A stretch of DNA of 51,915 nucleotides from an uncultured Anaerolineae bacterium (GCA_965368765.1 CBDUOF010000001.1:1-51915); one strand, 5' to 3'. Positions 474 through 51,872 are shown, counted from the first letter of the stretch. The notes: generated by a model not told the origin, from the sequence alone. A program made the numbers and translations.

Positions 474-1499
474 TCACGCTGTTTGCAGGGGCCACAAGCG
501 GCGTTTTTGCAGAGCCTGCCGTAACAATGGCGCGATTTGTCGCTGGATATGCTCATTGGCGTAGCCAACCCAACTCACCTCGCTGTGACAGTCTAGCGGG
601 CAATTTAAGGGCTGACCAGCCACATCTGTGAGAATAACGCCGAGTTCCCGGGCAATTAGTTCGGTGCAAATGTCATAAGGGTGACAGCAGATGCCAAGCG
701 ATAAATTTTGTTGGGCAAGGATGGCTTCCATGAACGGCCGTATATCGGCGACAAATCGATCCCGTCCGGCCATAAGTTCATAGAGTTGCCCTCCCGTACA
801 AATATATTGGTCTTCGAAGCAGTGCGCCTTGCCGGGCTTCGTTGGCCCTAATGCGCCAAGAATAATCTCTTCATCAATTGCGGCTAGCTCGGCACGTGCC
901 CCAGGGAAGAAGCGGGCAATCATGGCATAGCCATGGGCGATCGTTTTGGCACGAGACGGCCGTACCTCTAGCCGTGTTTCACTGCCGCTGAGCCGATTAA
1001 AGCGGCTGGCCTCGGCTCCCTGGCCCCGCACCGCCCACAGCGCATCGGACAAATGCTGCTTCACCAGCGGAATTTCTGTTTGCACGGCCAGTTCAACATC
1101 TTGCAGGCTGGTTTGGGGTCCGCGGTTGGGGGCAACGGCCGTTAATATCCAGCCACTCCGTTTTTGGTACATCAACCCTCGCGTGCCATCGATCGGATCA
1201 ACGATAATACGCCAGACGGCCGTTTCTTCTGGCGTCCCTTGTGGCAAGACAATCTGACCATTTGGTAATCCTTCGGCAATCAGCACGATAGGAACATGCG
1301 CGGCCACTTCACGCGTGAAAAAATCGATTAGTGCCGCTTCGCTTACCCTATCAACCGCGTAAATGGTGTCTCCGTCAGCCTCGGCAACAATGGCTGACAA
1401 TGATTCCAGGGAAGCTTGTTCACAGGCTGTTATGACGGCCGTTCGGATGCTGGCGTGGAGCTGACGAATTTGGTTTAGCAGGGGGTGGGTCAAAGACAT
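474..1499 (-). CDS. Inositol monophosphatase / FBPase-fold (FIG superfamily) phosphatase
   Basis: 341 aa. Contains the metal-binding motif [13 protein letters not shown] (DPIDGT) typical of the IMPase family. Size is appropriate. Confidence 0.75.
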
Positions 1500-1511
1500 T
1501 GGAAACAGCGC

Positions 1512-3449
1512 TTAAGCGGAACTGTCTGGCATACGAGGAAGCTCAAAATAGAAAATACTGCCACGGCCGTTATTGCTTTCGGCCCATAGATGACCGCCAT
1601 GCAGATCGGCAACCCATTGCGCCAGCGCCAGGCCCTGCCCGCTGCTGGTTTCGTCACCCGCTTGCCCCTGATAAAACTTCTTGAAGATATGCGGCAAGTC
1701 CCTTTTGGCAATGCCTGCGCCCGAATCTTCTATTTGGATCAACACATGCTCAGGGTCGGCTGCCAGGGTCACTTTTACCTTTTTCTTTTTGGGGGAATAC
1801 TTAATGGCGTTTTCCACAAGATTGCCTACAGCGCGATGCAGCTTCACCGGGTCTCCCATAATTTCATGATGCCCAGGTTCAGCCGTCAGCTCAAGGGCAA
1901 CTTGTCTGGTTTTTGCCTGAGGCTGAAATTCTTGTACAACGTCAGTGACAATCTCTAAAATATCGCACGGTTGCGGCGCTGTTTCCGGCTGCAGCTTACG
2001 TGATTCAGCTTCATCAAACAGTAGGGCATTGCTCACGGCAATGGCAATGGCAGCTGCAATGGCGCGTGCTCGCTCCAAATCCGCTTCACCAAAATCGCCA
2101 TCTTTCTTGTTGATCAGTTGCATCGCCCCAATGACCTTGCCGCGAAAGATAAGGGGCACACAGAGCAAAGTACGGGTGTGAAAGCCGGTTTTCTCATCGG
2201 CCTTATGATAGTGGTGTTCATGACTGGCCACATCATTGGTGTAAATTGGCTGGCCGGAGCTCACCACCTGCCCAACAATGCCCTGCCCTACTGCCAACTC
2301 TATTTTCCCAATCTCCTCAACGGCCGTCCCCACATTGGCCAGCACATAGAGCGTGTCTGTTGCCTCATTCAAAAGCCATAGCGATGAAGCTTCGATTCGC
2401 CAACTGTCGTGCACTTGCTTGATAGTAAGATGAATCACCTCATCCAAATCAAGTGAGGCAGTTATGGTTTGAGTAATGTGCACAAGCGTATTTAGCTCTT
2501 CCAGCCGCGCAGCCAGAGCCTGATCGGCCGCCTGAAAGACTCTGGCGTTTTCCAGGGCAATTGCCGCGTAGTCGGCCAAAAATGAGAGCAAAAATTCATC
2601 TTGTTTGCTGAAGGCACGGTGCGCGGTGCGGTTACTGACACCTAATACGCCCAGATTGATGCCGCGCAGTTGAAGCGGTACATAGAGTATGGCATGAGCA
2701 AAGTAGCCAGTTTTTACTTTCATCCCTTGCCCCGACATAGACGATTGACGCAACGGCCGTCCTGATTGCATCACGTCACCAGCGGGAGAGTCGGCCAGCG
2801 GCAGGATCAGAGCCGGTTTGTTTAGCTGGGAAGGCGTTTGGCGGTTATACGGCCGTAAATGGTCCCCGGCATCATCGGGCAGCCAAATAGTGCTTTCTTC
2901 CGCGTTTGTCAGATAAGTTGCCGCTTCCAGCACCCGCTGCAACACGTCATCTACGCCCATGAGCGTCGTAATCGCCTTGCCGATGTTAGAAAGCGTTCGC
3001 ATCTCATTATTTTGGCGGTTCATTTCTACTTTCAGGCGGCGAATATGCTCTGCTTGCTCAGCTTTGTCATGTAACAAACGCGTTTCTGCCAGGGCCCGAT
3101 CAATCGTCCCAATTATTTCATCCACCGTAAACGGCTTGATGATGTAATCTTTGGCGCCCAAACGAAAAGCCTCTATGGCACTCAATTCCGAGCCGTAGCC
3201 CGTCATTAAAACAATGGGTGTTCTTAATGATTCTCGCGCCATCTGCTGCAATACATCCAGCCCAGTCATTTGGGGCAGATTAAAATCTAACATCACCAGG
3301 TCTGGTTCTTTTTCACGAATCATATCCAGCCCAGATTGGCCATCGTAGGTATGAATGGTGCGATAGCCAAACGTAGGCAGCACCGTTTCGGTGAGATGTT
3401 TTACAATCTCTCGACTATCGTCAATAATGAGAATGAGTTCACCGCTCAT
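1512..3449 (-). CDS. Response-regulator receiver - GAF - GAF - HATPase_c signalling protein (no recognisable DHp/H-box)
   Basis: Start placed at MSGELILIIDDS (ATG at 3449), inside the longer ORF. REC motifs: IIDDS, DLVMLDFNLPQMTG, KPF. Two GAF-like blocks follow. C-terminal ATPase has N-box NLVENAIKYSP and G-boxes EDSGAGI and GQGLAL. I see no HExxxP H-box. Confidence 0.8.
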   Translation of the reverse strand: MSGELILIIDDSREIVKHLTETVLPTFGYRTIHTYDGQSGLDMIREKEPDLVMLDFNLPQMTGLDVLQQMARESLRTPIVLMTGYGSELSAIEAFRLGAKDYIIKPFTVDEIIGTIDRALAETRLLHDKAEQAEHIRRLKVEMNRQNNEMRTLSNIGKAITTLMGVDDVLQRVLEAATYLTNAEESTIWLPDDAGDHLRPYNRQTPSQLNKPALILPLADSPAGDVMQSGRPLRQSSMSGQGMKVKTGYFAHAILYVPLQLRGINLGVLGVSNRTAHRAFSKQDEFLLSFLADYAAIALENARVFQAADQALAARLEELNTLVHITQTITASLDLDEVIHLTIKQVHDSWRIEASSLWLLNEATDTLYVLANVGTAVEEIGKIELAVGQGIVGQVVSSGQPIYTNDVASHEHHYHKADEKTGFHTRTLLCVPLIFRGKVIGAMQLINKKDGDFGEADLERARAIAAAIAIAVSNALLFDEAESRKLQPETAPQPCDILEIVTDVVQEFQPQAKTRQVALELTAEPGHHEIMGDPVKLHRAVGNLVENAIKYSPKKKKVKVTLAADPEHVLIQIEDSGAGIAKRDLPHIFKKFYQGQAGDETSSGQGLALAQWVADLHGGHLWAESNNGRGSIFYFELPRMPDSSA

Positions 3450-3963
3450 AATAATTTCTTCTTGAATGTGTAGATACGGCCGTCGCTCCCTTTCCCCGCT
3501 GGATACCAGACCAATCAATCATATGTTGGCAGCACTGCAATGCTCAAAATCGTATGGCAATATTCTTACGCATGTAATTAAGTGGCACAGTCCACCTGCT
3601 AATATATCTGGTCATTATAGCATACCCCGCTTACCTGTCGCCAAGTCAGGCAAACAAAAGAATATGCCTTCACAGGCACCCAAATATTGAGCGAAAGTTC
3701 GCTTGATTACTTGTTTCGCCGCAAGTTGCCTCTATACGAACTTTAAATGGCAAAATCGGTGAATTACGAAAGGTTTATACGATTGAAAAATGGAGAAATA
3801 ACTTTACGTAAAGCCGGGAACGTGCTATAGTTAGCCAACTATTGGTTATGTTAATGTAAAACAGGGTGATTTTTGGGTGTTTTACCTGAAATTAGCCCGC
3901 TCATTTGCACCAAGGCGCATAAGGTGCAAATTGAATCTATCGTCAGTTTTGTGGAGGTATGCG

Positions 3964-4953: not shown

Positions 4954-5033
4954 GGCTAAATCTGCTTGATAGCTAGGTAGAGAATCATTCATCTACCACC
5001 TATGCTTTTAATCAACCTTTGTTGAAATGAAAA

Positions 5034-5062
5034 AGCGCACCCGAAACAGGTGCGCTTTTTTT
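5034..5062. terminator. Bidirectional rho-independent terminator between the convergent LysM and ABC genes
   Basis: Stem AGCGCACC (5034-5041) pairs with GGTGCGCT (5049-5056), with loop CGAAACA. An A-run lies upstream and a T-run at 5057-5062. Confidence 0.65.
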
Positions 5063-5086
5063 GTGCCAATGCTGCCTGACTATTGG

Positions 5087-7015
5087 CTAGTTTTGACTGA
5101 AGTGCTCCGTACCTTCTGGCACTTCCTGGGCGGCCCATTGCATGGTATAGAGGTTGTAATACCGTCCTTTTTTGGCCAGTAGTTCCTCGTGGGTGCCCTG
5201 CTCAACAATACGGCCGTTATCCAAAACCACAATTTGGTCCGCTCCTACAATTGTGCTGAGCCGATGGGCAATCACAAAACTGGTGCGCCCTTCCATCAGT
5301 GTGTCCAGCGCTTGTTGGATTACCTTTTCTGTGGTGGTGTCTACGCTGCTGGTTGCCTCATCTAAAATGAGGATTCGCGGGTTGGCCAGCAAGGCGCGGG
5401 CAAAAGAGATGATCTGCCGCTGCCCCACGCTTAAATTGACCCCGTTCTCTCCAACTTCGGTCTTGTAACCATCGGGCATCTTGCGAATAAAGGCATCGGC
5501 CCCAACGGCCGTTGCAGCTTCAACCACTTCTTTATGACTGGCATCCAAACGGCCGTAACGAATATTGTCCTCAATGGTGCCAGTGAACAAAAAGGTATCT
5601 TGCAGCACAATCCCCAACTGTGCCCGTAAGCTGGCCTGCGTGACCTGGCTAACCTCATGTCCGTCAATGGTCAACGAGCCACCCGTGATGTCAAAAAAGC
5701 GAGAGATGAGCCGAATGATAGTGCTCTTGCCTGCGCCCGTTTCGCCTACCAGCGCAATACGTTGCCCTGGCTGAGCGCTGAGCGTAATCCCTTGCAGCAC
5801 GGGGACCCCGTCCTGGTAACTAAACATCACATCTTCAAAAGCGACATGCCCCTGAACGGGTGGCAAATCAACCGCGCCGGGCGCATCCAACAGATCAGGG
5901 GAGGTGTCTAGCAAATTGAATACCCGTTCGCTCGCGGCCATCGTCGCCTGGAAAGTATTGTAGCGCTGTGCCAGTTCCCGAATCGGGTCAAAAAATCGGT
6001 CAATGTACAGCACAAAAGCCACCAGCGTACCGGTTGTCAATGCATCTCCAAGTACCAGCCAGCCCCCCACGCCAATGACCAACGCCGTTGCCAGAGACCC
6101 CATGAAATCAACTCCAGGGAAGAAAATAGCCGTCAGACGACTGGCATCAACATTGGCATTGAAAAAGGAGTAGTTCAGATCATCAAAATATTGGGCATTT
6201 TTCGCTTCACGGATGAAGCTTTTGGTGACGCGAATGCCGGAAATGGATTCATTGAGGTAACCATTGATAAGCGAAAGCCGCTGTCGCGTGGCTCTGTAGG
6301 CCCCACGCACCCGAACCCGCCAATAGTTGGTTAAGATATACATGAGCGGCAATACGGCAAAGGTCACCAGGGCCAACCGCCAATTAAGGAGCAGCATGGC
6401 GATGATGATGCCCGTCAGGGTGAAGAAAGAGCGAAACAGCCCGGTGATCGACCAGGTGATGAAATCTTGCAGCACGCCCACATCGCTAATCAGGCGGCTC
6501 ATAAGGCGCCCCACGCTGTAGTTATTGTGGAAGTTAAGCGACAACGTGTGGAGATGGCGAAATAAATCGCTGCGGTAATCCACGACCACTTTGGTGCCAA
6601 CATACGCCATAATGGCAATGCGAAACCGATTCGTGATCCATTCACTTACAGCAGCCACTATAAAAAGAATTGTCCACAGTCGCAATGTGTCCAGGGAACC
6701 TTCCCGGATGCCATTATCAATGGCCTTTCCGATAATAGTGGGCTGGGAGACGGCCAACAGGGAACTGGCAATCATGAGGGCAACGGCCACCGTGAGCCTC
6801 GATAGATACGGGCGCATGTAACCCAGCAACCGACGCACCAAACGGCCGTCGTACGCTTTGCCCATCGCTTCATCATCTTCCTTGAGCAATGCTTGAATTC
6901 GTTCTTCGCGCTCTAGCCGTTCCTGCTCTTCGATGCCAATTCTCGGATCGAACTGTTTTTGTCGGGAACGGCCGTTCATCTTTCCATTTTGCGCTTGGTT
7001 TTGATTATCAGACAT
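5087..7015 (-). CDS. ABC transporter, fused permease/ATP-binding subunit (type I exporter, MdlB/MsbA-like)
   Basis: 642 aa with six N-terminal TM helices. Walker A GETGAGKST, signature LSVGQRQ, Walker B ILILDEATS, H-loop IAHRL. Confidence 0.9.
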   Translation of the reverse strand: MSDNQNQAQNGKMNGRSRQKQFDPRIGIEEQERLEREERIQALLKEDDEAMGKAYDGRLVRRLLGYMRPYLSRLTVAVALMIASSLLAVSQPTIIGKAIDNGIREGSLDTLRLWTILFIVAAVSEWITNRFRIAIMAYVGTKVVVDYRSDLFRHLHTLSLNFHNNYSVGRLMSRLISDVGVLQDFITWSITGLFRSFFTLTGIIIAMLLLNWRLALVTFAVLPLMYILTNYWRVRVRGAYRATRQRLSLINGYLNESISGIRVTKSFIREAKNAQYFDDLNYSFFNANVDASRLTAIFFPGVDFMGSLATALVIGVGGWLVLGDALTTGTLVAFVLYIDRFFDPIRELAQRYNTFQATMAASERVFNLLDTSPDLLDAPGAVDLPPVQGHVAFEDVMFSYQDGVPVLQGITLSAQPGQRIALVGETGAGKSTIIRLISRFFDITGGSLTIDGHEVSQVTQASLRAQLGIVLQDTFLFTGTIEDNIRYGRLDASHKEVVEAATAVGADAFIRKMPDGYKTEVGENGVNLSVGQRQIISFARALLANPRILILDEATSSVDTTTEKVIQQALDTLMEGRTSFVIAHRLSTIVGADQIVVLDNGRIVEQGTHEELLAKKGRYYNLYTMQWAAQEVPEGTEHFSQN

Positions 7016-8790
7016 TATGCCTTCCCTCCCATTTCTGCTTCCAGGGCCACAAACGCCTCCTGGTCTTTCAGCTGCAAATCATAAATCTGCCGGTACAGAC
7101 CGCCCTGAGTCAACAATGTTTCATGGGTTCCGCGCTGGACAATACGGCCGTGATCCAGCACCAATATTTCATCCGCACTCTTTAACGTCAGTAGCCGTTG
7201 GGCAATCACAAAAGTTGTGCGCCCTTCCATGAGAACAGCCAATGCTTCTTGAATAAGATGCTCTGTTTCAGTGTCTACGCTGCTTGTAGAATCGTCCAAT
7301 ATTAGGATGCGTGGGTCGGTGAGCAAGGCACGCGCAATGGCAATGCGCTGTTTTTGTCCACCGCTCAGCGTGACGCCCCGTTCGCCCACGCGGGTATCGT
7401 ATCCCTCTGGCATCCTGGTAATGAAGTCATGAGCACGGGCCGCTGTGGCGGCTGCGATAATCTCTTCCTCGCTGGCATCGGGACGGCCGTAGGCAATGTT
7501 TTCCCCCACGGTTTGACTAAACAGGACTGGATCCTGTAGCACAATGCCAACCTGCCGTCGCAGCGATTGCACCTGTACGGAACGAACATCAAATCCATCA
7601 ACCAAAACCTGACCCGCTGTCGCGTCATAAAAACGGGGAATCAAATTGGTCAACGTCGATTTACCCGAGCCGGTTGGCCCAATCAAGGCAATGGTTTGTC
7701 CTGGTTCCGCATGAAATGAGATATCAGCCAGAATTTTAAGATCTTCACGGTAGGCAAAATCGACACCTTGATAGGTCACCGAACCAGTCAGCCTATCCAG
7801 CCAGATGGCGTCTTCGCGCTCCTCAATTTCGCTGGGTGTGTCAATAATGTCGAAGACACGCTGAGCGCTGGCCCCTGCCGTGGCGGCCAAATTCACCAGG
7901 AATCCCAGGCGCTGCACGGGCGCGCCCAGCATTAACACATAGGAAATGAGGGCAAAGAGAGTGCCAACCGTAATTTCCCCATCTAATGCAATGGGGCCGC
8001 CAAACCAAAGCAGTAAAAAGATGGCGGATGCAACCAAAAACGTAAACAAAGGCCAGTTGTTGGCCCAGGTGCGAATAAGGCCGTAGCGATGGTCGAACCA
8101 GGTATTATTTTCATTATCGAATTTATCCAGTTCATAGGGCTCACGGGCAAATGCTTTTACTACATTAATCCCTGTCATGCTTTCTTGCATCGTTGATGAG
8201 AGCACGCCCATCTGCTCTTGAATGAGCTTGAACATGGGGCGCACAGTGTTGCCAAAGCGAATGGTGGCATAAATTAACAGGGGGATGGGAATAAGACCCA
8301 GCAGAGAAAGCTGTACTGATTCCAAAAACATCGCAATAATGACGCCTACCAAAAGCAAGGTTGTCGAGAGCAGCCCCATCAGCCCAACGCCGACAAAACG
8401 CTCTGTTTCGGTAATGTCGCTAGTGGCCCGGCTCATCAAGTCGCCTGTCAGGGTACGATCATGAAAGCTAAAGGGCAGCGCCTGAACGCTATTGTAGAAG
8501 TGGTTGCGCAAATCATAAGAAACGCGATGGGTGAGCCATTCACCAAAATAGAGTTGGCCAAAACCAGCAACGCCTCGCACCACGGCAATGACCAATATGA
8601 CGCCACCAGCAATAAAAAGCGCCCGTGGTTCACCCTCAGTCAACCCGTTATCGATAGCATCTTTGATGATCTGAGGCACGAATAGATTGAGCAGAGTGGC
8701 AAAAAACATGGACAGGTAGGCGATGGCCACCTGTTTCCAATAGGGTCTAAGATACCCAAGCAATCGTTGGTAGACTGCATTTTCCTTCAT
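7015..8790 (-). CDS. ABC transporter, fused permease/ATP-binding subunit (partner of 5087-7015)
   Basis: Start set at MKENAVYQRLL (ATG 8790), with GGAGG 9 nt upstream. Walker A GPTGSGKST, signature LSGGQKQR, Walker B ILILDDSTS. Its stop overlaps the downstream gene's ATG by 1 nt (TAATG), implying translational coupling and a heterodimeric exporter. Confidence 0.9.
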   Translation of the reverse strand: MKENAVYQRLLGYLRPYWKQVAIAYLSMFFATLLNLFVPQIIKDAIDNGLTEGEPRALFIAGGVILVIAVVRGVAGFGQLYFGEWLTHRVSYDLRNHFYNSVQALPFSFHDRTLTGDLMSRATSDITETERFVGVGLMGLLSTTLLLVGVIIAMFLESVQLSLLGLIPIPLLIYATIRFGNTVRPMFKLIQEQMGVLSSTMQESMTGINVVKAFAREPYELDKFDNENNTWFDHRYGLIRTWANNWPLFTFLVASAIFLLLWFGGPIALDGEITVGTLFALISYVLMLGAPVQRLGFLVNLAATAGASAQRVFDIIDTPSEIEEREDAIWLDRLTGSVTYQGVDFAYREDLKILADISFHAEPGQTIALIGPTGSGKSTLTNLIPRFYDATAGQVLVDGFDVRSVQVQSLRRQVGIVLQDPVLFSQTVGENIAYGRPDASEEEIIAAATAARAHDFITRMPEGYDTRVGERGVTLSGGQKQRIAIARALLTDPRILILDDSTSSVDTETEHLIQEALAVLMEGRTTFVIAQRLLTLKSADEILVLDHGRIVQRGTHETLLTQGGLYRQIYDLQLKDQEAFVALEAEMGGKA

Positions 8791-9077
8791 AAACTTAATC
8801 CTCCAAAGTCTATTAAGTGAGGCAACGGCCGTTCTCCAAGCCATCGACTAAACCGTGGTAGAGGGCCATCCTCGGTTCATTAGACAATCGTCTAACTGAA
8901 CATCCAAGTTTATATAAACCCGACGCAGATGTCCACTTCTGCGTTTGATTGCCCCTTAATTGCCACTGTCACAACGGCCGTTTCTACCAGGCTAGCCACA
9001 TTACCACTCTTTTTAGCAGCAATTGCACAATAAAACCAAAATATTTGGTGGTATTTTTAATAATTTGCGGAAATAAT

Positions 9078-9117: not shown

Positions 9118-9202
9118 GCTCACATCGTTTATATTTCAAGCAAGCAATGGCCGTTTATAAAAGCACAACGTAAAAAATAGCCAACCCGTAAGGAATTCAT
9201 TC

Positions 9203-9601: not shown

Positions 9602-9732
9602 CCGTATTCACTCCAACTCTTTAAATTGATCAACCGCTTTTCAGAAACGGCCGTCTCGCCGAGGTTGCTTGCTGCCCGATAAACAGTCGCTGACAATTGA
9701 CAAATTGACCAGCAATGATCAAGGAGAATCTT

Positions 9733-10332
9733 ATGAAGGAAGAACGTGCTCAAATATTAGACATGCTGCAAAAAGGCAAGATTACAGTTGATGAGGCAGA
9801 TCAGCTGTTGGAAGCATTGGCGGGAACGGCCGTTTCCGCAAGTCAACCCACCCCCGCTAAAAACATCACGCCGCCTGTGCCGCCAAAATCCGGCCCCAAA
9901 TTAACGTCTGACCAGATCTTGAAACTCAACCGGGAAGGGGTAGACCCAGACTTTATTCGGGCGGTGCGCCAACTGAACAACAGCACCTTGACAGGAGATC
10001 ACATCGTTCGCATGGCGGTCGAGGGCGTGGATCCGGCGTTTATTACGGCCGTTTCCCAACTAGAAAATCTCCCTCTCACTGGAGATCACATTGCACAAAT
10101 GGGCATCGAAGGCGTCGATCCCGACTTTCTGCGAGCCGTGAACGGCTTAACGTTGCAGGGTCTTTCTGGTGACCACATTATGCACATGGGCCTTGAAGGC
10201 GTTGATGATTCGTTTATTCACAAAATAAAAGAGTCAGACTTTATCCATGAACTAACGGGTGACGCCTTCGTACAAATGGCCCTTGAAGGCATCAATGATG
10301 AGTTACTGCAGGAAGCGATTCAGCTATTGTAA
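9733..10332 (+). CDS. SHOCT-like N-terminal domain protein with about five 29-aa repeats (LTGDHIxxMxxEGVDPxFIxAV)
   Basis: Start at ATG 9733, with AAGGAG at 9721-9726. N-terminus is ERAQILDMLQKGKITVDEADQLLEAL. A Pro-rich linker follows, then tandem 29-aa repeats. Confidence 0.7.
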   Translation: MKEERAQILDMLQKGKITVDEADQLLEALAGTAVSASQPTPAKNITPPVPPKSGPKLTSDQILKLNREGVDPDFIRAVRQLNNSTLTGDHIVRMAVEGVDPAFITAVSQLENLPLTGDHIAQMGIEGVDPDFLRAVNGLTLQGLSGDHIMHMGLEGVDDSFIHKIKESDFIHELTGDAFVQMALEGINDELLQEAIQLL

Positions 10333-11601: not shown

Positions 11602-11643
11602 ATTCATTGTTACGTCTATCTTTACTTGCTTTTATGGCCCGTT

Positions 11644-23776: not shown

Positions 23777-23903
23777 ATGGGCGTGGATTATAGCGGGAGA
23801 TGGTCGGAAAGGAACGGCCGTCTCCAGCCCAAAACATTCGTCTGATGAAGAACCCACAAAGCGGTTCGACCTGACCGCATACATTTGAGGAATAAGGTAC
23901 CTG

Positions 23904-38706: not shown

Positions 38707-38738
38707 AATAACTCATTTGTTGTTCACTCCTTGGTAAG

Positions 38739-38778
38739 AGAAACGGCCGTTTTGTGGGAAACGGCCGTTTCTTTTTTT
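38739..38778 (+). terminator. Rho-independent terminator of aceBA, built from two copies of the iterated palindrome
   Basis: AGAAACGGCCGTTT (38739-38752) pairs perfectly (14 bp) with AAACGGCCGTTTCT (38759-38772). The loop is TGTGGG and a T6 run follows at 38773-38778. Confidence 0.8.
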
Positions 38779-44779: not shown

Positions 44780-46087
44780 ATGAGCAAACAACCAATGACC
44801 CACTGCCAGGAATATGAAACCGTCAGCCGCCGCACCTTTTTAAGCCGTGGTGCACAGTCAGCGGCGGCGCTTATGTTTGGCAACAAGATTGTGGCGCTGC
44901 CCACCTGGATGCCGCGCATTAGCCTGGCAGACCCGCATGTGGGGCCGGCCGGGGACACGTTGGTTTGTGTCTTTCTACGAGGCGGAGCCGATGGTCTTAA
45001 CATGGTTGTGCCTCACGGCGATGAAGAATATTACGCCCATCGTCCCATCATTGGCATTCCGCGGCCAGACGATAATGGCGCCAGCGACGGCCGTACCGTA
45101 GACCTGGATGGCTTTTTTGGCCTGCACCCCGCCCTGGCACCGCTGCACGCCATTTACGCGGCTGGAGACATGACCTTTATTCATGCCACTGGCTCTCCAG
45201 ACGAGTCTCGTTCTCACTTTGAAGCAATGGATTTGATGGAGCGAGGCGCTACAGAAAATGGTGATTACACCGGCTGGCTGGCACGGCATCTGGCAACGTT
45301 GGACAGTGGCAACAGTTCCTCGCTGCGGGCAGTGGGCATCGGCGACATGCTGCCCGCTTCCCTCACCGGGGCGGTATCCTCCACCGCGCTGCAATCCATT
45401 GCCGACTACCATCTGGCAGGACGGCCTGACCGGGTCGGACAAATGAGCACGCTGCTGCAATCCCTTTACGAGCAAAATCAGGACATGCTAACGGCCGTTG
45501 CTCAGCAGACCTTTGCTTCCATTGACGTGCTGGGTCGCATTGATACGGCGGGGTATGTGCCAAACGGCCGTGCCTATCAGGAAAACGAATTTGGCCAGGC
45601 AATGCGCATGGTTGCCCAGCTCATTAAAGCCGATGTCGGCGTCGAAGTGGCCTGCGTCGATTTAGGTGGCTGGGACACCCACGTGGGACAAGGTGGCACG
45701 ATCGGCACCATGGCCAGCCAGTTGGCTGAACTCGCCGAAGGGCTGGCAGCCTTTTATGAAGATTTGCAGGCGCGAATGGGCAACGTCACCGTGGTTGTCA
45801 TGTCGGAATTTGGGCGGCGGCTGCAAGAGAATGGCGGCCTGGGAACAGACCATGGCCACGGCAGCATGATGATGGTGTTGGGTGGCGGCATCGATGGCGG
45901 GCAAGTCTTTGCGAACTGGCCCGGCCTGCACGATGAGCAGCTCGTCGGTCCTGGCGACCTGGCAGTTACCACCGATTATCGGGACGTGCTGGGGGAAATT
46001 ATTCAAAAACGGCTCAATAACCCGCTTTTGCCCGACATTTTTCCAGGTTATCGGGTGAATCCGCTTGGGTTAGCTGTGCCTCGGTAG
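44780..46087 (+). CDS. DUF1501-family (sulfatase-fold) protein with a Tat signal
   Basis: 435 aa. Twin-arginine-like SRRTFLSRGAQSAAAL. The C-terminal GLGTDHGHGS block is typical of DUF1501. Confidence 0.85.
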   Translation: MSKQPMTHCQEYETVSRRTFLSRGAQSAAALMFGNKIVALPTWMPRISLADPHVGPAGDTLVCVFLRGGADGLNMVVPHGDEEYYAHRPIIGIPRPDDNGASDGRTVDLDGFFGLHPALAPLHAIYAAGDMTFIHATGSPDESRSHFEAMDLMERGATENGDYTGWLARHLATLDSGNSSSLRAVGIGDMLPASLTGAVSSTALQSIADYHLAGRPDRVGQMSTLLQSLYEQNQDMLTAVAQQTFASIDVLGRIDTAGYVPNGRAYQENEFGQAMRMVAQLIKADVGVEVACVDLGGWDTHVGQGGTIGTMASQLAELAEGLAAFYEDLQARMGNVTVVVMSEFGRRLQENGGLGTDHGHGSMMMVLGGGIDGGQVFANWPGLHDEQLVGPGDLAVTTDYRDVLGEIIQKRLNNPLLPDIFPGYRVNPLGLAVPR

Positions 46088-46131: not shown

Positions 46132-46734
46132 TTATGGCAAAACGTCAACAATAGAGATGTTGAGGTCTGCAAAGTTAGCAAAAGTGAGGTCGTCGAAGAC
46201 AAGGTTGTGGTGGGCTTTGAGCTGCGCCATCAGCCCCAGATAGTTGCCCAGGATGCGATCTTGCCAGTTGAGGTTCAGGTGGGAAACGGCCGTCTTAATT
46301 CCTGCTTCGTCCCCTTCCAACTCAACAAAGTTTCCGTAGGGCAGTTCATCCAGCACAATTTCTACATCCTGCCACTGGAACGTTTCACGGTATTTTTCAT
46401 ACACCTGCATGGGGGCAAAACCGAGGCGCTTAAAAATCTCCGCCAACATCGCAAAATCGCTGACCTGGACTTCTAGCTCTTCACGCACTTTGGCTTCACT
46501 TTGGGGAAGGTCATGGGGGGTGCTTTTGTAGGTAAGGGTAACGGCCGTATCCTGCCTGAGTCGCAATAGGCAAAGGTTACGATATAAGCGCTCGTCGGCC
46601 GTATCAAAGCGCACATTTCGCTCATAAATCCGTGGCTTTTTTAAGACCGCACCCGCCGCCAGCAGTTGCTCCCGAAACGCCGCCAGCGCTGGTATATAAA
46701 ACTTGACTTCTACCTCTAGATTTTTGTTGCCCAT
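46132..46734 (-). CDS. CYTH-domain protein (class IV adenylate cyclase / triphosphate tunnel metalloenzyme)
   Basis: 200 aa. The N-terminal LEVEVKFYI (ExExK) motif and alternating acidic/basic beta-strands match the CYTH fold. Confidence 0.7.
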   Translation of the reverse strand: MGNKNLEVEVKFYIPALAAFREQLLAAGAVLKKPRIYERNVRFDTADERLYRNLCLLRLRQDTAVTLTYKSTPHDLPQSEAKVREELEVQVSDFAMLAEIFKRLGFAPMQVYEKYRETFQWQDVEIVLDELPYGNFVELEGDEAGIKTAVSHLNLNWQDRILGNYLGLMAQLKAHHNLVFDDLTFANFADLNISIVDVLP

Positions 46735-47594
46735 AAATATGCCAATGCCGATCTTCTTTTACCTTTGCCTGCTTCCACTTGGGAGCGCATATGTGCATCA
46801 AGCTTCTTTTTTTCTGAGTTACTTAACACATCGTTCATTACTTCTGCCACCGAAGGCACCCTGGGATTGGCTGCTCCTTGCTTGATACTGTCCCAGGTGA
46901 CAAAATCAGGAAAGGGTCTGAGTTCCAGTACCAATTCCAGATTAATTTCGCTGAAGCCCGCTGCCTCTGCCCAGAAAAACAAATCCCGCTCGTCGAAATT
47001 CAGCATGGTATCTGTTTTTGATGGCTGCAAGGCTTCGAACACTGCCTTGATTTTGTCCGTGATCGCCATGATAGGCGTCACGTCGCAGCCGCTAAAAATG
47101 TGGCGAGGTGATGGATAGCCAAAGCTGTTGATGGGCTCAAAGAGGGAGATACGGCCGTTCCTCCGCAATACCCGATAGAATTCCTGGAACGCTCGCGCCT
47201 TGTCAGGTACATAAATGAGCACCGATCGCGTTGTCACGACATCGACAGAAGCGTCACCAAGTCCAGCTAAATCGTCGGCAGAAGCCAGTACAAAGTCACA
47301 CCGTTCCGCCACATTCATTTGCTCTGCCAGCCCGGCCGCATGATCAAGAAGTTCTTGTGAAATGTCCGAAAAGAGAACGCGCCCAGTTTCACTCCGTGCC
47401 AATGCACCAAAGGCCACAAGACCGTCACCACAGCCCACATCCAGCAATGTTTCATCTTCTTGCAGGTTTGCCCTGTCAAGGATCTTGTCACGCGCGGGAT
47501 AAAGGAATTCTTCCAGTGCCCGCTGCATCAATGCCTCATCACCGCCAAAGCGCCGTGCCAACAACCAGTCCTTCCATATATCCTGACTTTTCAC
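46716..47594 (-). CDS. Class I SAM-dependent methyltransferase
   Basis: 292 aa. Motif I is LLDVGCGDGLVAF, followed by an acidic post-I residue (LFSDIS). It overlaps the CYTH gene by 19 nt. Confidence 0.8.
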   Translation of the reverse strand: MKSQDIWKDWLLARRFGGDEALMQRALEEFLYPARDKILDRANLQEDETLLDVGCGDGLVAFGALARSETGRVLFSDISQELLDHAAGLAEQMNVAERCDFVLASADDLAGLGDASVDVVTTRSVLIYVPDKARAFQEFYRVLRRNGRISLFEPINSFGYPSPRHIFSGCDVTPIMAITDKIKAVFEALQPSKTDTMLNFDERDLFFWAEAAGFSEINLELVLELRPFPDFVTWDSIKQGAANPRVPSVAEVMNDVLSNSEKKKLDAHMRSQVEAGKGKRRSALAYLWATKI

Positions 47595-48208: not shown

Positions 48209-49726
48209 TTACTTTCTCAATCTTTCCCAGCGACTATACCATTTCCAGTTGCTCACATCCCGGTCACCGGGGGCTACAATTTGGCTTGCCTGCTGCCCTT
48301 GCTGGTGCGCCATCAGGGTCGCTATGATGGCGGCTTCCATTGTCAGCGGAGCTTCCCGATCGCTCATTTTGAATCGCTCCTCCACAAAATGCGTATCGAA
48401 CTGGCCCGTCATAAAGCGGTGGCTGTCCATCATATGTTGGTGGAAAGGAATGTTGGTCTTCACCCCCATGATGCGGTATTCCTCCAGGGCACGGCGCATC
48501 CGCAGAATCGCTTCGCCGCGCGTCTCACCGTAACAGATGAGCTTGCTAATCATGGAGTCGTAGTAGGGGGTGATTTCATAGCCGGGAAAAACGCCCGTGT
48601 CTACCCGTACGCCTGGCCCGGTAGGCACGCGGCTCACGGTAATAGTGCCGGTAGAGGGCAGGTAGTTATTGTACGGATCTTCAGCATTGATACGACACTC
48701 GATAGCCCAGCCCTTCATTTTGATGTCTTCTTGCTTAAAACGCAGTCGCCGTCCACGCGCAATGCGCAGCTGCTCCTGCACGATATCTACCCCGGTTACC
48801 AGTTCGGTGATGGGATGTTCAACCTGGACACGGGTATTCATCTCTAAAAAGTAGAAGTTTTTCTCCCGATCCAGCAGAAATTCAATGGTACCTGCGCTAG
48901 CATAGTCAACGGCTTTGGCAGCGGCGACAGCCACCGCGCCCATTTTCTGACGCAGCGCTTCATCAACGACAAAGCTGGGGCTTTCTTCGATGACTTTTTG
49001 GTGACGACGCTGCAGAGAACATTCCCGCTCACCCAAATGGATGACGTTGCCGTGCATATCGGCCAGAAGCTGAATTTCGATATGACGGCCGTTTTCAATC
49101 AGGCGCTCCAAATAAACTGTGTCATTGCCGAATGCGGCGGCAGCCTCACGGCGCGCGGCTGCCAGAGCACCCGGCAAATCGACCGACTTGTAAACAGGGC
49201 GCATCCCTTTGCCGCCACCGCCTGCCGTCGCCTTTACCAACAGGGGAAACCCAATCTTTTTGGCCGCTTCAATGAGCGCTTCATCGGTATCGGCTGAGGC
49301 GCCAGGCACGACGGGAACACCAGCAGCAACGGCCGTTTCCCGCGCCGTCTGCTTATCCCCCATAATCCGAATGGCTTCCGGCGGTGGCCCGACAAACACC
49401 AGGCCATTGTCAACGCACATCTGGGCAAACTCCGCCCGCTCCGACAAAAAGCCATAGCCAGGATGAATTGCCTCTGCCCCAGACCGCTTGGCAATCTCCA
49501 GAATCTTGTCCATGCGCAGGTAGCTGTCCTTGGCCGGCGACGGACCTAGATAATACGCCTCGGTCGCGTAGCGCACATGCAGGGCGTGGCGATCGGCATC
49601 TGAATACACTGCCACAGTGCTTATGCCCAACTCATGACAGGCACGCAAAACCCGCATGGCAATCTCGCCGCGATTGGCGATGAGTAATTTATTGAATCGT
49701 TTAGGTAATAAACTGTCTGTAGCCAT
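48209..49726 (-). CDS. accC: Biotin carboxylase subunit of an acyl-CoA carboxylase
   Basis: 505 aa. KLLIANRGEIAMRVLRAC, ATP-grasp segment GFPLLVKATAGGGGKGMR, EMNTRVQVEHPITE. Confidence 0.92.
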   Translation of the reverse strand: MATDSLLPKRFNKLLIANRGEIAMRVLRACHELGISTVAVYSDADRHALHVRYATEAYYLGPSPAKDSYLRMDKILEIAKRSGAEAIHPGYGFLSERAEFAQMCVDNGLVFVGPPPEAIRIMGDKQTARETAVAAGVPVVPGASADTDEALIEAAKKIGFPLLVKATAGGGGKGMRPVYKSVDLPGALAAARREAAAAFGNDTVYLERLIENGRHIEIQLLADMHGNVIHLGERECSLQRRHQKVIEESPSFVVDEALRQKMGAVAVAAAKAVDYASAGTIEFLLDREKNFYFLEMNTRVQVEHPITELVTGVDIVQEQLRIARGRRLRFKQEDIKMKGWAIECRINAEDPYNNYLPSTGTITVSRVPTGPGVRVDTGVFPGYEITPYYDSMISKLICYGETRGEAILRMRRALEEYRIMGVKTNIPFHQHMMDSHRFMTGQFDTHFVEERFKMSDREAPLTMEAAIIATLMAHQQGQQASQIVAPGDRDVSNWKWYSRWERLRK

Positions 49727-49786: not shown

Positions 49787-51331
49787 TTATAGGGGAATAT
49801 TCCCGTGCTTCTTGGGTGGATTATGATCCCGCTTGTTTTGCAGCATGTTGAGGGCATTGATGAGGCGCGGACGGGTTTCGCTGGGTTCAATCACGTCATC
49901 GACGTAGCCACGCCGGGCGGCTTCATACGGATTGGCAAACTGTTCTCGATAATCGGCCACCAGCTCCGCTTTGCGAGCAGCGGGATCTTCTGCATTTTGC
50001 AGGTCGCGCCGGAATATGATATTGACAGCACCGTCTGGCCCCATCACGGCAATTTCGGCCGTAGGCCAGGCCAGGTTCAGATCAGCACGAATATGCTTGC
50101 TGTTCATGACGCAGTACGCGCCGCCGTACGCTTTGCGGGTGACAACGGTGATTTTCGGCACGGTGGCTTCGCAAAAGGCGTAAAGCAGCTTGGCACCATG
50201 CCGAATAATTCCGCCATGCTCCTGGTTGATGCCCGGCAGGAAGCCAGGAACGTCCTCAAACACAATCAGCGGAATATTGAAGCTGTCACAGAAGCGCACA
50301 AACCGGCCAGCCTTTTCGCTGGCGGCAATGTCCAACACACCCGCCAGCACCATGGGCTGGTTAGCCACAATCCCAACAGAAAAGCCACCTAGCCGCGCAA
50401 AACCGACAACAATATTTTGGGCATAATGCTCCTGAATTTCATAAAAGATCCCGTTGTCCATAATGAGGTGAATCACATCTTTGATGTCGTACGGTTTGTT
50501 AGGATTGTTGGGGACAATGCTGTTGAGTGCATTTTCCGTGCGCAGGCTGTCGTCTTTACTGGGCACAAAGGGAGGATCTTCCATGTTGTTGGACGGCAGG
50601 TAACTCATCAGCTCCCGGATGAGGTAGAGCGCGTCGGCTTCGGATTCGGCGGCCATGTGAGCCACCCCGCTTTTTTCGTTGTGGGTCATGGCGCCACCCA
50701 GCTCTTCAAAGGAAACTTCTTCGCCGGTGACGGCTTTCACCACGTCTGGCCCGGTGATGAACATGTAGCTGCTCTCTTTGACCATGTAGATGAAGTCGGT
50801 AAGGGCCGGGGAGTAGACAGCGCCGCCCGCGCAGGGCCCCATGATGGCGCTAATTTGGGGGACAACGCCAGAGGCCAATGTGTTGCGCAGGAAAATGTCG
50901 GCGTAACCGCCCAGGCTCACAACCCCTTCCTGAATGCGGGCTCCGCCAGAATCGTTTAAGCCGATGACGGGCGCACCATTGCGAATGGCCATGTCCATTA
51001 TTTTGCATATTTTATCGGCGTGAACCTGGCTAAGGCTCCCGCCAAAGACGGTGAAGTCCTGGCTAAAAACGTAAACGAGACGGCCGTCTACTGTGCCCCA
51101 CCCTGTCACAACGCTATCTCCCATATATTTTTGCTTGTCCATACCAAAATTGCGTTCACGATGAACAACAAAGGCATCAATTTCACGAAAAGAGCCTTTA
51201 TCTAGCAGAAGGTCGATCCGTTCACGGGCGGTCATCTTGCCCTTTTCTTTGTGGCGCGCCACCCGTTCCGGGCCGCCACCCTGCTGTGATTCTTGTCTGA
51301 GCTGCTGAAGTTTTTCAAATTTGTCGGTCAT
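49787..51331 (-). CDS. Acyl-CoA carboxylase carboxyltransferase (beta) subunit, propionyl-CoA carboxylase / methylmalonyl-CoA carboxyltransferase type
   Basis: Start placed at [11 protein letters not shown] (ATG 51331), which gives 514 aa. Blocks [31 protein letters not shown] and [12 protein letters not shown] are typical of the PccB/AccD5 family. Confidence 0.9.
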
Positions 51332-51431
51332 GGGCCAATTCCAAAATACTGGTTCCAATTCCAGATCTATTTCTGGAACTGGTTCATGGTTGCCTTTCAC
51401 TTTAAAGAGCAAGTTATTGCTTGAAGCAACC

Positions 51432-51872
51432 TTAATGAAAATAGGTTTGTGCGGCGCGTCGGAGCGACCACCGATTGAAGAAGACTGTGCCAATGAGCAT
51501 GAGGCTGGTGATCAGCCACAAGGTCCAGTTGCGCGGTGGCTGAGCAAATAGCAGCCATACGGCCGATTCATACAAAAGGTAACAGCTAATTGCAACGGGA
51601 ATAGAGTTGATGACAAACGGCCGTTTCTGCCCCAGCTTCCAGGCTAACCCATAAAACAACACACCAAACAAACTTCCCGCCACCAGCCGCAGGCGTGGGT
51701 CTGGCTGAATAAGCTGCGTCTGGGGCAGATCAAGCTGCTGACCAATAGCAAAGGCCCGTCCAAGGTTCCATGTCCCAAGGAAAATAACACTCCAAAAAGT
51801 AATAGTTACGGTACGAGGTCGGGTTGGCACAGGCTGGACACTCATTGAGAAAATTATAGAGTATCGTTGCAA
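51432..51872 (-). CDS. Hypothetical membrane protein (4 TM)
   Basis: 146-aa ORF with four hydrophobic segments. I recognise no family. Confidence 0.45.

Follow-up and report, generated by a model that had tools for sequence, protein, structure and literature searches.

Why does one 8-base palindrome, ACGGCCGT, recur so densely in an ordinary stretch of chromosome? The window (the whole stretch of 51,915 nucleotides that was analysed) belongs to a Promineifilaceae bacterium (filamentous Chloroflexota) close to Ca. Leptofilum. Exact enumeration gives 83 exact copies in these 52 kb, a density of 1.6 per kb; a sequence-only reading had arrived at the same figure by hand, and all the sites it listed are real. 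Each line below is a copy of ACGGCCGT, listed without strand and followed by its ORF (strand in brackets), the residues encoded and any extension; the one other entry is a terminator-like hairpin, the stem of which is built from two copies 18 nt apart.

734..741, in ORF 474-1499(-), as x-R-P-x
956..963, in ORF 474-1499(-), as x-R-P-x
1135..1142, in ORF 474-1499(-), as T-A-V; 10-mer AACGGCCGTT
1216..1223, in ORF 474-1499(-), as T-A-V
1435..1442, in ORF 474-1499(-), as T-A-V
1563..1570, in ORF 1512-3518(-), as [NDHY]-G-R
2320..2327, in ORF 1512-3518(-), as T-A-V
2753..2760, in ORF 1512-3518(-), as x-R-P-x
2849..2856, in ORF 1512-3518(-), as x-R-P-x
3476..3483, in ORF 1512-3518(-), as x-R-P-x
5210..5217, in ORF 5087-7015(-), as [NDHY]-G-R
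5505..5512, in ORF 5087-7015(-), as T-A-V; 10-mer AACGGCCGTT
5549..5556, in ORF 5087-7015(-), as [NDHY]-G-R
6842..6849, in ORF 5087-7015(-), as [NDHY]-G-R
6968..6975, in ORF 5087-7015(-), as [NDHY]-G-R; 12-mer GAACGGCCGTTC
7144..7151, in ORF 7015-8844(-), as [NDHY]-G-R
7483..7490, in ORF 7015-8844(-), as [NDHY]-G-R
8825..8832, in ORF 7015-8844(-), as T-A-V; 10-mer AACGGCCGTT
8974..8981, between ORFs; 10-mer AACGGCCGTT
9647..9654, between ORFs
9826..9833, in ORF 9715-10332(+), as T-A-V; 10-mer AACGGCCGTT
10045..10052, in ORF 9715-10332(+), as T-A-V
11887..11894, in ORF 11644-14055(-), as [NDHY]-G-R
12177..12184, in ORF 11644-14055(-), as x-R-P-x
12512..12519, in ORF 11644-14055(-), as T-A-V
13996..14003, in ORF 11644-14055(-), as [NDHY]-G-R; 10-mer AACGGCCGTT
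14768..14775, in ORF 14290-14844(+), as [NDHY]-G-R
15495..15502, in PEP carboxylase (PEPC) ORF 14892-17681(+), as T-A-V; 10-mer AACGGCCGTT; kept in 22/81 orthologues
15837..15844, in ORF 14892-17681(+), as T-A-V; 10-mer AACGGCCGTT; in this genome only, relatives having TGGCCGATGTT
16170..16177, in ORF 14892-17681(+), as T-A-V; kept in 55/81 orthologues
16822..16829, in ORF 14892-17681(+), as [NDHY]-G-R; kept in 37/81 orthologues; GCGGCCGC in G-form lineages
18217..18224, in ORF 17741-20932(-), as x-R-P-x
18732..18739, in ORF 17741-20932(-), as T-A-V; 12-mer AAACGGCCGTTT
18960..18967, in ORF 17741-20932(-), as T-A-V
18990..18997, in ORF 17741-20932(-), as T-A-V
21798..21805, in ORF 20973-22871(+), as T-A-V
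22812..22819, in ORF 20973-22871(+), as T-A-V; 10-mer AACGGCCGTT
23592..23599, in ORF 22868-23965(-), as T-A-V; 10-mer AACGGCCGTT
23664..23671, in ORF 22868-23965(-), as T-A-V
23814..23821, in ORF 22868-23965(-), as T-A-V
24021..24028, in ORF 23904-24701(+), as T-A-V
24333..24340, in ORF 23904-24701(+), as T-A-V; 12-mer AAACGGCCGTTT
24594..24601, in ORF 23904-24701(+), as T-A-V; 10-mer AACGGCCGTT
24857..24864, in ORF 24842-25378(+), as T-A-V
25481..25488, between ORFs (ambiguous gene calls); 10-mer AACGGCCGTT
25722..25729, in ORF 25554-26150(-), as [NDHY]-G-R
26360..26367, in ORF 26228-27442(+), as T-A-V
26425..26432, in ORF 26228-27442(+), as x-R-P-x
27215..27222, in ORF 26228-27442(+), as T-A-V; 10-mer AACGGCCGTT
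28833..28840, in ORF 28694-30430(+), as [NDHY]-G-R; 12-mer AAACGGCCGTTT
29797..29804, in ORF 28694-30430(+), as x-R-P-x
29844..29851, in ORF 28694-30430(+), as [NDHY]-G-R
30115..30122, in ORF 28694-30430(+), as x-R-P-x
30859..30866, in ORF 30555-31439(+), as [NDHY]-G-R; 10-mer AACGGCCGTT
31132..31139, in ORF 30555-31439(+), as [NDHY]-G-R; 10-mer AACGGCCGTT
31276..31283, in ORF 30555-31439(+), as [NDHY]-G-R; 10-mer AACGGCCGTT
32264..32271, in ORF 31557-33935(+), as x-R-P-x
33108..33115, in ORF 31557-33935(+), as T-A-V; 12-mer AAACGGCCGTTT; 16-mer GGAAACGGCCGTTTCC
33356..33363, in ORF 31557-33935(+), as x-R-P-x; 12-mer AAACGGCCGTTT; 18-mer GGGAAACGGCCGTTTCCC
36236..36243, in ORF 35716-37299(+), as [NDHY]-G-R; 10-mer AACGGCCGTT
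37106..37113, in ORF 35716-37299(+), as [NDHY]-G-R
37473..37480, in ORF 37402-38706(+), as x-R-P-x
38736..38775, + strand, terminator-like hairpin, an 18-pair stem then a T run, 3' of the isocitrate lyase ORF
38743..38750, between ORFs; 12-mer AAACGGCCGTTT; within hairpin 38736..38775
38761..38768, between ORFs; 12-mer AAACGGCCGTTT; within hairpin 38736..38775
39335..39342, in ORF 38987-39739(+), as T-A-V
40626..40633, in ORF 40455-42059(+), as T-A-V
41057..41064, in ORF 40455-42059(+), as x-R-P-x
41877..41884, in ORF 40455-42059(+), as T-A-V
41917..41924, in ORF 40455-42059(+), as [NDHY]-G-R
42866..42873, in ORF 42080-44611(+), as T-A-V; 10-mer AACGGCCGTT
43175..43182, in ORF 42080-44611(+), as T-A-V; 10-mer AACGGCCGTT
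43527..43534, in ORF 42080-44611(+), as [NDHY]-G-R
44186..44193, in ORF 42080-44611(+), as T-A-V; 12-mer AAACGGCCGTTT
45087..45094, in ORF 44780-46087(+), as [NDHY]-G-R
45491..45498, in ORF 44780-46087(+), as T-A-V; 10-mer AACGGCCGTT
45564..45571, in ORF 44780-46087(+), as [NDHY]-G-R
46286..46293, in ORF 46132-46734(-), as T-A-V
46541..46548, in ORF 46132-46734(-), as T-A-V
47151..47158, in ORF 46716-47594(-), as [NDHY]-G-R
49085..49092, in ORF 48209-49726(-), as [NDHY]-G-R
49329..49336, in ORF 48209-49726(-), as T-A-V; 10-mer AACGGCCGTT
51080..51087, in ORF 49787-51493(-), as [NDHY]-G-R
51617..51624, between ORFs; 12-mer AAACGGCCGTTT

A compositional effect is rejected: dinucleotide-preserving shuffles (n=100) hold a mean of 0.67 copies (sd 0.83, maximum 4), and Markov models of orders 0, 1, 2 and 3 predict 0.92, 0.77, 1.7 and 3.5 (0.8–3.5), against the 83 observed. 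The excess over chance is about 100-fold, in agreement with the two orders of magnitude estimated by the sequence-only reading, which had proposed the Markov comparison. Orders 5–6 predict 44–77 copies because the sub-words on which they draw derive almost wholly from ACGGCCGT itself. Palindromes matched in composition, another comparison proposed there, gave 0 copies each in the window (AGCCGGCT, ACCGCGGT and ACGCGCGT), and the runner-up among all 8-mer palindromes has 6. Of 80 related genomes, about 45 have ACGGCCGT as their top-ranking 8-mer, and whole-genome counts near expectation are excluded for about 45 independent assemblies.

The copies are nearly as dense between ORFs (1.50 per kb) as inside them (1.61 per kb) and occupy all three reading frames (37/26/14). 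They have altered protein sequences. The tripeptide T-A-V occurs 38 times where 6.0 are expected, a 6-fold over-representation, and 36 of the 38 are encoded by ACGGCCGT, for which codon usage predicts 16%; similarly, [NDHY]-G-R occurs 29 times versus 9.4 expected, with 26 of the 29 encoded by the octamer.

Comparison of orthologous genes, suggested earlier as a way of seeing whether sites are maintained, revealed that, out of 194 aligned sites, 166 (86%) are unchanged in relatives whose DNA is only about 75% identical, as opposed to 14% of other 8-mers in the same aligned blocks. Identity at third codon positions is 92% inside the sites versus 54% outside. What maintains the sites is a force on the DNA itself, one that is blind to reading frame, fixes synonymous positions and has altered proteins.

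Sister lineages carry related forms in excess: GCGGCCGC (52 versus 1.3 expected in L054; 21 versus 0.8 in L035), CCGGCCGG (11 versus 1.2 in L062) and TCGGCCGA (10 versus 0.9 in L031). The outer base pair is A..T in this genome and G..C, C..G or T..A in these lineages; these three forms are found at the orthologous PEPC columns where other genomes have ACGGCCGT, so that the core CGGCCG does not vary. Copies appear at orthologous positions without indels, and therefore arise by point substitution; a MITE or other mobile-element reading is rejected.

The sequence-only reading had also excluded MITEs, and that exclusion stands; its statement that nothing is conserved beyond about 12 bp needs amending, as a weaker symmetric preference (G at -3/-4, C at +3/+4) extends to a degenerate 16-bp envelope, GGAAACGGCCGTTTCC. 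The extensions it described are present where it placed them, with 31 of the 83 copies extending to the 10-mer AACGGCCGTT, nine to the 12-mer AAACGGCCGTTT and one to GAACGGCCGTTC. One-mismatch relatives are frequent, as claimed, but only at the two outer positions: in the pooled 690 kb, TCGGCCGT and GCGGCCGT have O/E of 5.1 and 1.7, versus 0.27–0.88 for internal variants. Outer flanks of CGGCCG in the window include A..A (11), T..T (6), A..C (5) and G..T (3). Flank preferences are symmetric, with G at -3/-4 common to all clades and -1/-2 varying by clade, and no complementarity between mirrored positions was found beyond that of the consensus (ratio 0.9–1.17). Symmetric flanks of this kind, free of extra complementarity, suggest a protein-like readout. 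Reaching out to about 16 bp, the symmetric preference is longer than a methyltransferase site typically is, which counts against the methylation reading.

The sequence-only reading had proposed a search for cytosine methyltransferases. No C5 cytosine methyltransferase was found in the window or in about 1.4 Mb of related host DNA (80 loci). Phages, a prophage and a plasmid-like element linked to the host group are as octamer-rich or richer, and they repeatedly encode one N4-cytosine methyltransferase family. Homologous PF01555 enzymes with an SPPY motif lie on phage contigs L157, L168 and L189, their best solved relative being the N4-cytosine enzyme M.PvuII (the L189 enzyme is named cytosine-N4-specific by JGI). 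A fourth SPPY enzyme, on L190, is more distantly related, and a family member in the prophage shares a MAG with host locus L017. Among hexamer palindromes, CGGCCG ranks first or second for enrichment in all but one of the 11 contigs with the family (10 contigs; O/E 1.8–4.8, versus 0.86 in control viral loci), an association confounded by host lineage; the DNA of L285 has a family member and no CGGCCG excess. A link between the octamer and a methyltransferase is plausible but unproven, the one observation in its favour being that the N4-cytosine family travels with CGGCCG-rich phages and prophage.

Our best overall explanation, to which we give a probability of roughly one half, is a highly iterated palindrome (HIP) of the Promineifilaceae with a dimeric reader and a cytosine-methylated core used genome-wide. 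The maintaining force would come from a sequence-specific protein, a dimer that recognises two half-sites around CGGCCG independently of each other; which outer base pair is used, and the weaker preferences in the flanks, would change as this reader evolves. The core is most likely a cytosine-methylation site, by analogy with HIP1/CGATCG-DmtC and from the methyltransferase family on CGGCCG-rich elements. Methylated sites may serve a genome-wide DNA transaction, for example one in which the cell's DNA is tagged as self during repair, recombination or uptake; both the methylation link and the function are inferred. Phages and plasmids living in these hosts accumulate the same sites. Selection may keep the sites, as may biased mismatch correction, or both may act together. 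The site's C-to-T variants show no special depletion (pooled 690 kb), so that there is no clear signature of Vsr-type repair, and Vsr was not found in the window and the same 80 loci.

HIP1 is the highly iterated palindrome of cyanobacteria, itself unexplained. The sequence-only reading drew the parallel while aware of no earlier description of this octamer as a HIP, and none was found in the searchable literature; the parallel holds for every HIP behaviour that could be tested. ACGGCCGT is a genuine HIP of the Promineifilaceae, not a mobile element, and offers a system independent of HIP1 for studying what such repeats do. It shares with HIP1 the size of its excess, its density and its presence in all frames and in non-coding DNA; an indel-free spread, with one-off variants restricted to the first and last bases; and hyperconservation between genomes, palindromic extensions and lineage-specific alternate forms.

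The octamer ACGGCCGT occurs 83 times in the 51,915-bp window, exactly the number counted in the sequence-only reading, and every position listed there is real. About one third of the copies had been said to extend to a 10-mer, and 31 of the 83 indeed read AACGGCCGTT; the 12-mer extensions are likewise present, as nine copies of AAACGGCCGTTT and one of GAACGGCCGTTC. The same reading had tied its claim to a count well away from Markov expectation, and models of orders 0, 1, 2 and 3 predict 0.92, 0.77, 1.7 and 3.5 copies, respectively, while 100 dinucleotide-preserving shuffles yielded a mean of 0.67 and a maximum of 4. We rejected orders 5–6 (expectation 44–77) as a null because their sub-words derive from the octamer itself. 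Composition-matched palindromes, of the kind proposed for comparison, occur 0–2 times, the runner-up among 8-mer palindromes six times, and HIP1 itself, the GCGATCGC palindrome of cyanobacteria, once. CGGCCG hexamers number 118, of which 83 are flanked by A..T. The resulting density of 1.6 octamers per kb compares with 1.3–2.8 per kb in relatives.

Octamers are as frequent inside ORFs (1.61 per kb) as between them (1.50 per kb), judged on a crude ORF selection that was corrected at the ThiD gene. Seventy-seven copies fall in ORFs, split 37, 26 and 14 among the three frames, and six fall between. Their imprint on the encoded proteins is plain: the tripeptide T-A-V appears 38 times where amino-acid composition predicts 6.0, its five permutations appear 2–9 times each, and 36 of the 38 are encoded by the octamer, where codon usage predicts 16%. 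Similarly, [NDHY]-G-R is seen 29 times against 9.4 expected, with 26 octamer-encoded. Given this coding-independent density and the tripeptide excess, the pressure must act on DNA, and is strong enough to alter protein sequence.

Comparison of orthologues, which the sequence-only reading had recommended, revealed that 166 of 194 aligned window sites (86%) are identical in relatives, as opposed to 14% of other 8-mers in the same blocks; the comparison set was the eleven closest relatives, with DNA identity of only ~75%. Third codon positions are 92% identical within sites and 54% outside, and in orthologous PEP carboxylase (PEPC) columns the sites align without gaps or indels. Pooled over 690 kb of octamer-rich loci, the octamer occurs 2,726 times (both strands) against 56 expected. 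One-mismatch relatives had been described as frequent, which holds only at the outer positions (TCGGCCGT, O/E 5.1; GCGGCCGT, 1.7); all 18 internal one-off variants are depleted (O/E 0.27–0.88). Transition variants are the least depleted of these, and C-to-T variants are not specially depleted. Between closer genome pairs (PEPC genes 93–96% identical) site differences are mostly single substitutions. Because no near-identical strain was found, gains and losses could be polarized for only a handful of sites (in L012, L060 and L010, three of the loci fetched around PEPC); the single-step losses are all C-to-T or G-to-A, which is not diagnostic. HIP1 shows the same outer-position pattern among its one-off variants (Elhai, PMC4390886), and its site conservation parallels that found here (Xu et al., PMC5861425). 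The octamer is a lineage-specific palindrome, borne by substitution and strongly maintained at the level of DNA.

The window is an ordinary chromosomal stretch encoding, among others, PEPC, malate synthase, isocitrate lyase, biotin carboxylase, ABC exporters, histidine kinases and a NurA/HerA pair; neither a methyltransferase nor a mobile element is found in its gene content. Its PEPC is 86–90% identical to those of Candidatus Leptofilum and other Promineifilaceae metagenome-assembled genomes (MAGs; Chloroflexota, Anaerolineae), mostly from activated sludge, in which Promineifilaceae-type bacteria are abundant filaments. The PEPC product has no exact match on record, the best in the metagenome scan reaching 87% protein identity. 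The NurA nuclease (26228-27442) and HerA-like ATPase (28694-30430), a pair of the DNA-end-processing or defence type, are separated by 1.2 kb with two small unannotated ORFs. A SHOCT-like (DUF2089-C) domain opens both of the adjacent ORFs 9715-10332 and 10381-11601.

Four stretches of the window are free of the octamer (33364-36235, the longest; 3877-4953; 10381-11601; 27444-28450). The longest holds an ORF combining an XRE-type HTH with an M78 peptidase (33964-35472), which has 47% G+C and no site in 1.5 kb. Recent acquisition may explain these stretches; in cyanobacteria, such DNA has been flagged by its deficit of HIP1.

We traced the palindrome through 80 host loci around PEPC orthologues. 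The octamer is the commonest 8-mer in about 45 of them, reaching down to ~55–65% PEPC identity, and several of the others carry a different outer pair on the same core. The G form, GCGGCCGC, occurs 52 times against 1.3 expected in locus L054 and 21 times against 0.8 in L035. The C form, CCGGCCGG, reaches 11 against 1.2 (L062), 10 against 1.9 (L067) and 8 against 1.6 (L058), TCGGCCGA occurs 10 times against 0.9 in L031, and L027 mixes outer-pair forms. A high-G+C, Promineifilum-like clade has essentially no such palindromes. On the PEPC tree the A form is widespread and a G-form pair is nested inside it. The exchange can be followed at single sites: PEPC column 2083 reads AACGGCCGTAT in some lineages and GGGCGGCCGCAT in others, and column 2375 reads TCACGGCCGTCG, TCGCGGCCGTCG or TCCCGGCCGGCG by lineage. 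The next flank also differs by clade (AACGGCCGTT in the window's clade, CACGGCCGTG in that of L009), whereas G at -3/-4 is common to all clades, the G form included. A search for G-form phages by paired NotI sites gave, among the matches listed, high-G+C contigs only.

Three individual contigs deserve mention. L228, a metagenome contig with 60% G+C, is a stronger C-form example, with 23 CCGGCCGG in 22.8 kb. L079 (labelled Cellvibrionaceae) and L064 (labelled Verrucomicrobia) are probably mis-binned, because their PEPC genes nest within the Promineifilaceae tree; the former has 58 CGGCCG against 7.8 expected, with no flank preference and no A..T form, and the latter only 2 CGGCCG in 16.7 kb.

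What might read such a site? The sequence-only reading was right to exclude MITEs, but its limit of about 12 bp on conserved sequence was too short: weak, symmetric preferences for A at -1/-2 and G at -3/-4, with their mirror images, extend to 16 bp and define the degenerate palindrome GGAAACGGCCGTTTCC. Mirrored flank positions are no more often complementary than this consensus predicts (ratio 0.9–1.17), and therefore the palindrome is not kept for hairpin formation. We accordingly rejected hairpin or cruciform formation as the selected property, notwithstanding one terminator-like pair of copies: immediately downstream of the isocitrate lyase ORF (37402-38706), a pair of AAACGGCCGTTT copies spaced 18 nt apart folds into an 18-pair stem with a run of T behind it (38736-38775), and appears to have been co-opted as a terminator-like hairpin. 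From its flanks, the octamer seems to consist of two half-sites read independently of each other, as would be expected of a dimeric sequence-specific protein. Spacing is near random, with a deficit of intervals below 30 bp (24 against 72 expected) and a mild excess at 150–500 bp.

Our preferred reading is that a dimeric protein with evolving outer-base specificity recognizes the octamer. To the further step, that recognition is linked to cytosine methylation of CGGCCG and that the methylated sites would serve repair, recombination or uptake, as considered for HIP1, we assign a probability of about 50%. The sites would be kept by selection or by biased mismatch correction, two processes that our data do not separate.

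We looked for the corresponding enzymes with phmmer, using M.HaeIII, M.HhaI and E. coli Vsr as queries. Neither a C5 cytosine methyltransferase nor Vsr was matched in the window and the 80 host loci (~1.4 Mb), and no Vsr homologue was matched when host, viral and metagenome loci were taken together (3.15 Mb). The viral loci yielded one short C5 enzyme, on the phage-like contig L157, and two on contigs that are not octamer-rich. Dam-like adenine methyltransferase ORFs lie near PEPC in two octamer-rich relatives (L042, 2184-3044, minus strand; L034, 13017-13892, minus strand) and are probably unrelated to the octamer, whose core has no adenine.

When viral contigs were scanned for GAAACGGCCGTTTC, 113 loci were retrieved, of which 39 carry at least one octamer per kb, with a maximum of 3.7 per kb. 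Among these contigs L168 is a genuine phage (portal, large and small terminase) in which octamers reach 3.0 per kb and CGGCCG 6.6 per kb; L084 looks plasmid-like or ICE-like, and L157 has genes for RecT and a D5 primase. Homologous PF01555 methyltransferases, bearing the SPPY motif characteristic of N4-cytosine enzymes, are encoded on L157, L168 and L189; L190 has a fourth, more distant SPPY enzyme. Their best solved relative is M.PvuII; the family is small (68 proteins), and the JGI label of the L189 enzyme is cytosine-N4-specific. In GCA_014584575.1, the MAG to which the octamer-rich host locus L017 belongs, a prophage carries one member just past its terminase genes. The relevant features are as follows.

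L274 (GCA_014584575.1), 3333-20816: integrase-bounded prophage with a predicted N4-cytosine methyltransferase right after the terminase genes
L157, 7119-7952: predicted SPPY N4-cytosine methyltransferase
L157, 9850-10545: short (231-aa) C5 methyltransferase

In the short C5 enzyme motifs I, IV and VI are present and the C-terminal half is not recognizable. Over the 20.8 kb of the L274 prophage region CGGCCG occurs 186 times where 42 are expected; 49 copies belong to octamers, and most are not flanked by A..T. The density at this locus, 8.9 per kb, is the highest we saw. Across contigs reached via the methyltransferase rather than the motif, CGGCCG ranks first or second in enrichment among the 64 hexamer palindromes in seven of eight, and in 10 of 11 (O/E 1.8–4.8) once L157, L168 and L189 are added, L285 being the exception. 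In control viral loci the O/E is 0.86. This association of the family with CGGCCG is suggestive of a link to methylation, although it is confounded by host lineage. When octamers are masked, the remaining CGGCCG has an O/E of 1.3 in hosts and 3.1 in mobile elements; therefore, hosts enrich the 8-mer specifically, and mobile elements the bare hexamer too.

These data can be assembled into a tentative and rather unlikely picture in which the octamer belongs to a two-layer epigenetic self-marking system, independent of HIP1. In the first layer, the methyltransferase family of phages and mobile elements would mark CGGCCG, which is piled up to 5–9 sites per kb there; in the second, a host factor whose outer-pair specificity can evolve (A, G, C or T form) would drive or select the full octamer chromosome-wide. 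Were this true, HIPs would be a general strategy in more than one phylum, exploited by hosts and parasites, instead of a cyanobacterial peculiarity.

The best placed of the competing explanations, though still unlikely, is that the octamer is a self-recognition tag for uptake or recombination, akin to a DNA uptake sequence or Chi, for which methylation is inessential: a receptor or recombination enzyme of the lineage would prefer tagged DNA, so that the tag would build up in chromosomes and be mimicked by mobile elements. Such a role has been proposed for HIP1 in recent preprints (10.64898/2026.06.24.733823; 10.1101/2024.09.10.611283). A density of ~1.6 per kb lies in the range of uptake sequences, among which hairpins like the one downstream of isocitrate lyase are frequent; spacing is slightly more even than random, with the shortest intervals scarce, and phages, prophage and the plasmid-like element carry the octamer at or above host level. 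However, known uptake sequences and Chi are non-palindromic, Chi being strand-skewed in a way impossible for a palindrome, and a strict 8-bp receptor would not explain the loosely flanked CGGCCG of mobile elements (masked O/E 3.1 versus 1.3 in hosts). The tag also overlaps with our preferred reading, because the effect on cyanobacterial transformation is methylation-dependent.

Very-short-patch repair by Vsr and Dcm in E. coli raises the frequency of the cytosine methyltransferase site and lowers that of near-misses; it has reportedly shifted CCWGG-related words there (Bhagwat and McClelland 1992). By analogy, the octamer could be a functionless by-product of Vsr-like repair coupled to a CGGCCG methyltransferase and converting near-cognates. 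The depletion of internal one-off variants would follow, as would sites that override protein sequence and a bias common to mobile elements replicating in the host. We consider this quite unlikely, since the 3.15 Mb yielded no Vsr homologue, transition variants are the least rather than the most depleted, C-to-T variants are not specially depleted, and CGGCCG is denser in mobile elements than in hosts, unlike what passive exposure would produce. Moreover, the E. coli skew is few-fold, and the ~100-fold excess and 8–16-bp specificity of the octamer stand far above known Vsr effects.

Independent half-sites, a symmetric 16-bp envelope and the scarcity of close pairs would suit an abundant nucleoid-associated or chromosome-organizing protein, a role suggested for HIP1 because its copies are periodically spaced on the kilobase scale (Xu et al. 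2018, PMC5861425); this account is improbable, as it has no candidate protein and leaves both phage richness and the methyltransferase association unexplained. A base-composition or codon-usage artefact, or a remnant of a mobile repeat (MITE, REP), for which moderate G+C content is all that can be said, is dismissed by nulls of at most 3.5 copies, matched palindromes at 0–2, equal non-coding density, use of all frames, flanks with weak preference only past 8–12 bp where repeats form blocks of at least 20 bp, a position in ORFs for 77 of 83 copies where repeats are mostly intergenic, and copies in conserved genes at orthologous positions without indels.

The sequence-only reading knew of no report of this octamer as a HIP, and our literature search, one prokaryote HIP1 survey aside, likewise found no description of the octamer, of CGGCCG enrichment in Chloroflexi or of non-cyanobacterial HIPs. 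The function of HIP1 has been open for ~30 years, and all studies so far concern a single phylum and, in essence, a single sequence. A second HIP system, independent of the first, brings natural experiments that cyanobacteria do not provide: a different core, four outer forms, lineages that have lost the palindrome, and phages and prophages that carry it. Comparison of complete genomes can show which genes co-vary with HIP presence and form, and several related genomes, such as the complete chromosome NZ_OZ244997.1 (L055) and the 5.9-Mb contig JADJXK010000002.1 (L005), are long-read assemblies whose raw reads may permit a direct test of CGGCCG methylation. In practice, the octamer's strong compositional signal can serve to bin Promineifilaceae contigs, link phages to hosts and spot horizontal genes or mis-binned contigs.

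Among known systems, the DUS of Neisseria and USS of Pasteurellaceae resemble the octamer as short words at ~1 per kb, in and between genes, that shift peptide composition, form paired terminator copies and occur in lineage-specific dialects. They are, however, asymmetric 9–12-mers with a known receptor, and we rejected this class for a perfect palindrome. Chi, a strand-oriented, skewed word, was rejected because the octamer is identical on both strands and allows no skew. Restriction offers the opposite comparison: the core is the EagI site CGGCCG and the G form is the NotI site GCGGCCGC. Host and phage genomes normally avoid restriction targets; the enrichment seen here in both speaks against active restriction of unmodified sites.

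The closest likeness is to HIP1 and the alternate HIPs of cyanobacteria (Robinson 1995; Elhai 2015, PMC4390886; Xu et al. 2018, PMC5861425). The parallel drawn in the sequence-only reading is borne out in each of the behaviours compared. Each is a G+C-rich 8-bp palindrome that heads the 8-mer ranking of its genomes, with nested 6-bp and 4-bp methyltransferase-type sites; each is found in every frame as well as in non-coding DNA, spreads by substitution and not insertion, deviates at the first and last bases, is hyperconserved (synonymous positions included, for the octamer) and is replaced by other palindromes in related lineages. The octamer's ~1,600 copies per Mb lie inside the HIP1 range of 300–2,700 per Mb (Elhai 2015, Table 2, PMC4390886). 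It is not HIP1 proper: the window has a single GCGATCGC, and its nearest relatives belong to the Promineifilaceae (Chloroflexota). HIP1 has the core CGATCG, in cyanobacteria, and the outer pair G..C; the octamer has the core CGGCCG, in Chloroflexota, and a weak symmetric preference out to 16 bp. All four outer pairs occur among its relatives and CGGCCG has an internal GC, so that Elhai's G-methyl-C rule for outer bases does not predict these forms and is not transferable, and the data already count against this one specific model. Finally, the candidate methyltransferases here are phage-borne, predicted N4-cytosine enzymes, whereas DmtC of HIP1 is a chromosomal m5C orphan. The octamer thus provides an independent and richly varied comparative system for the long-standing question of HIPs.
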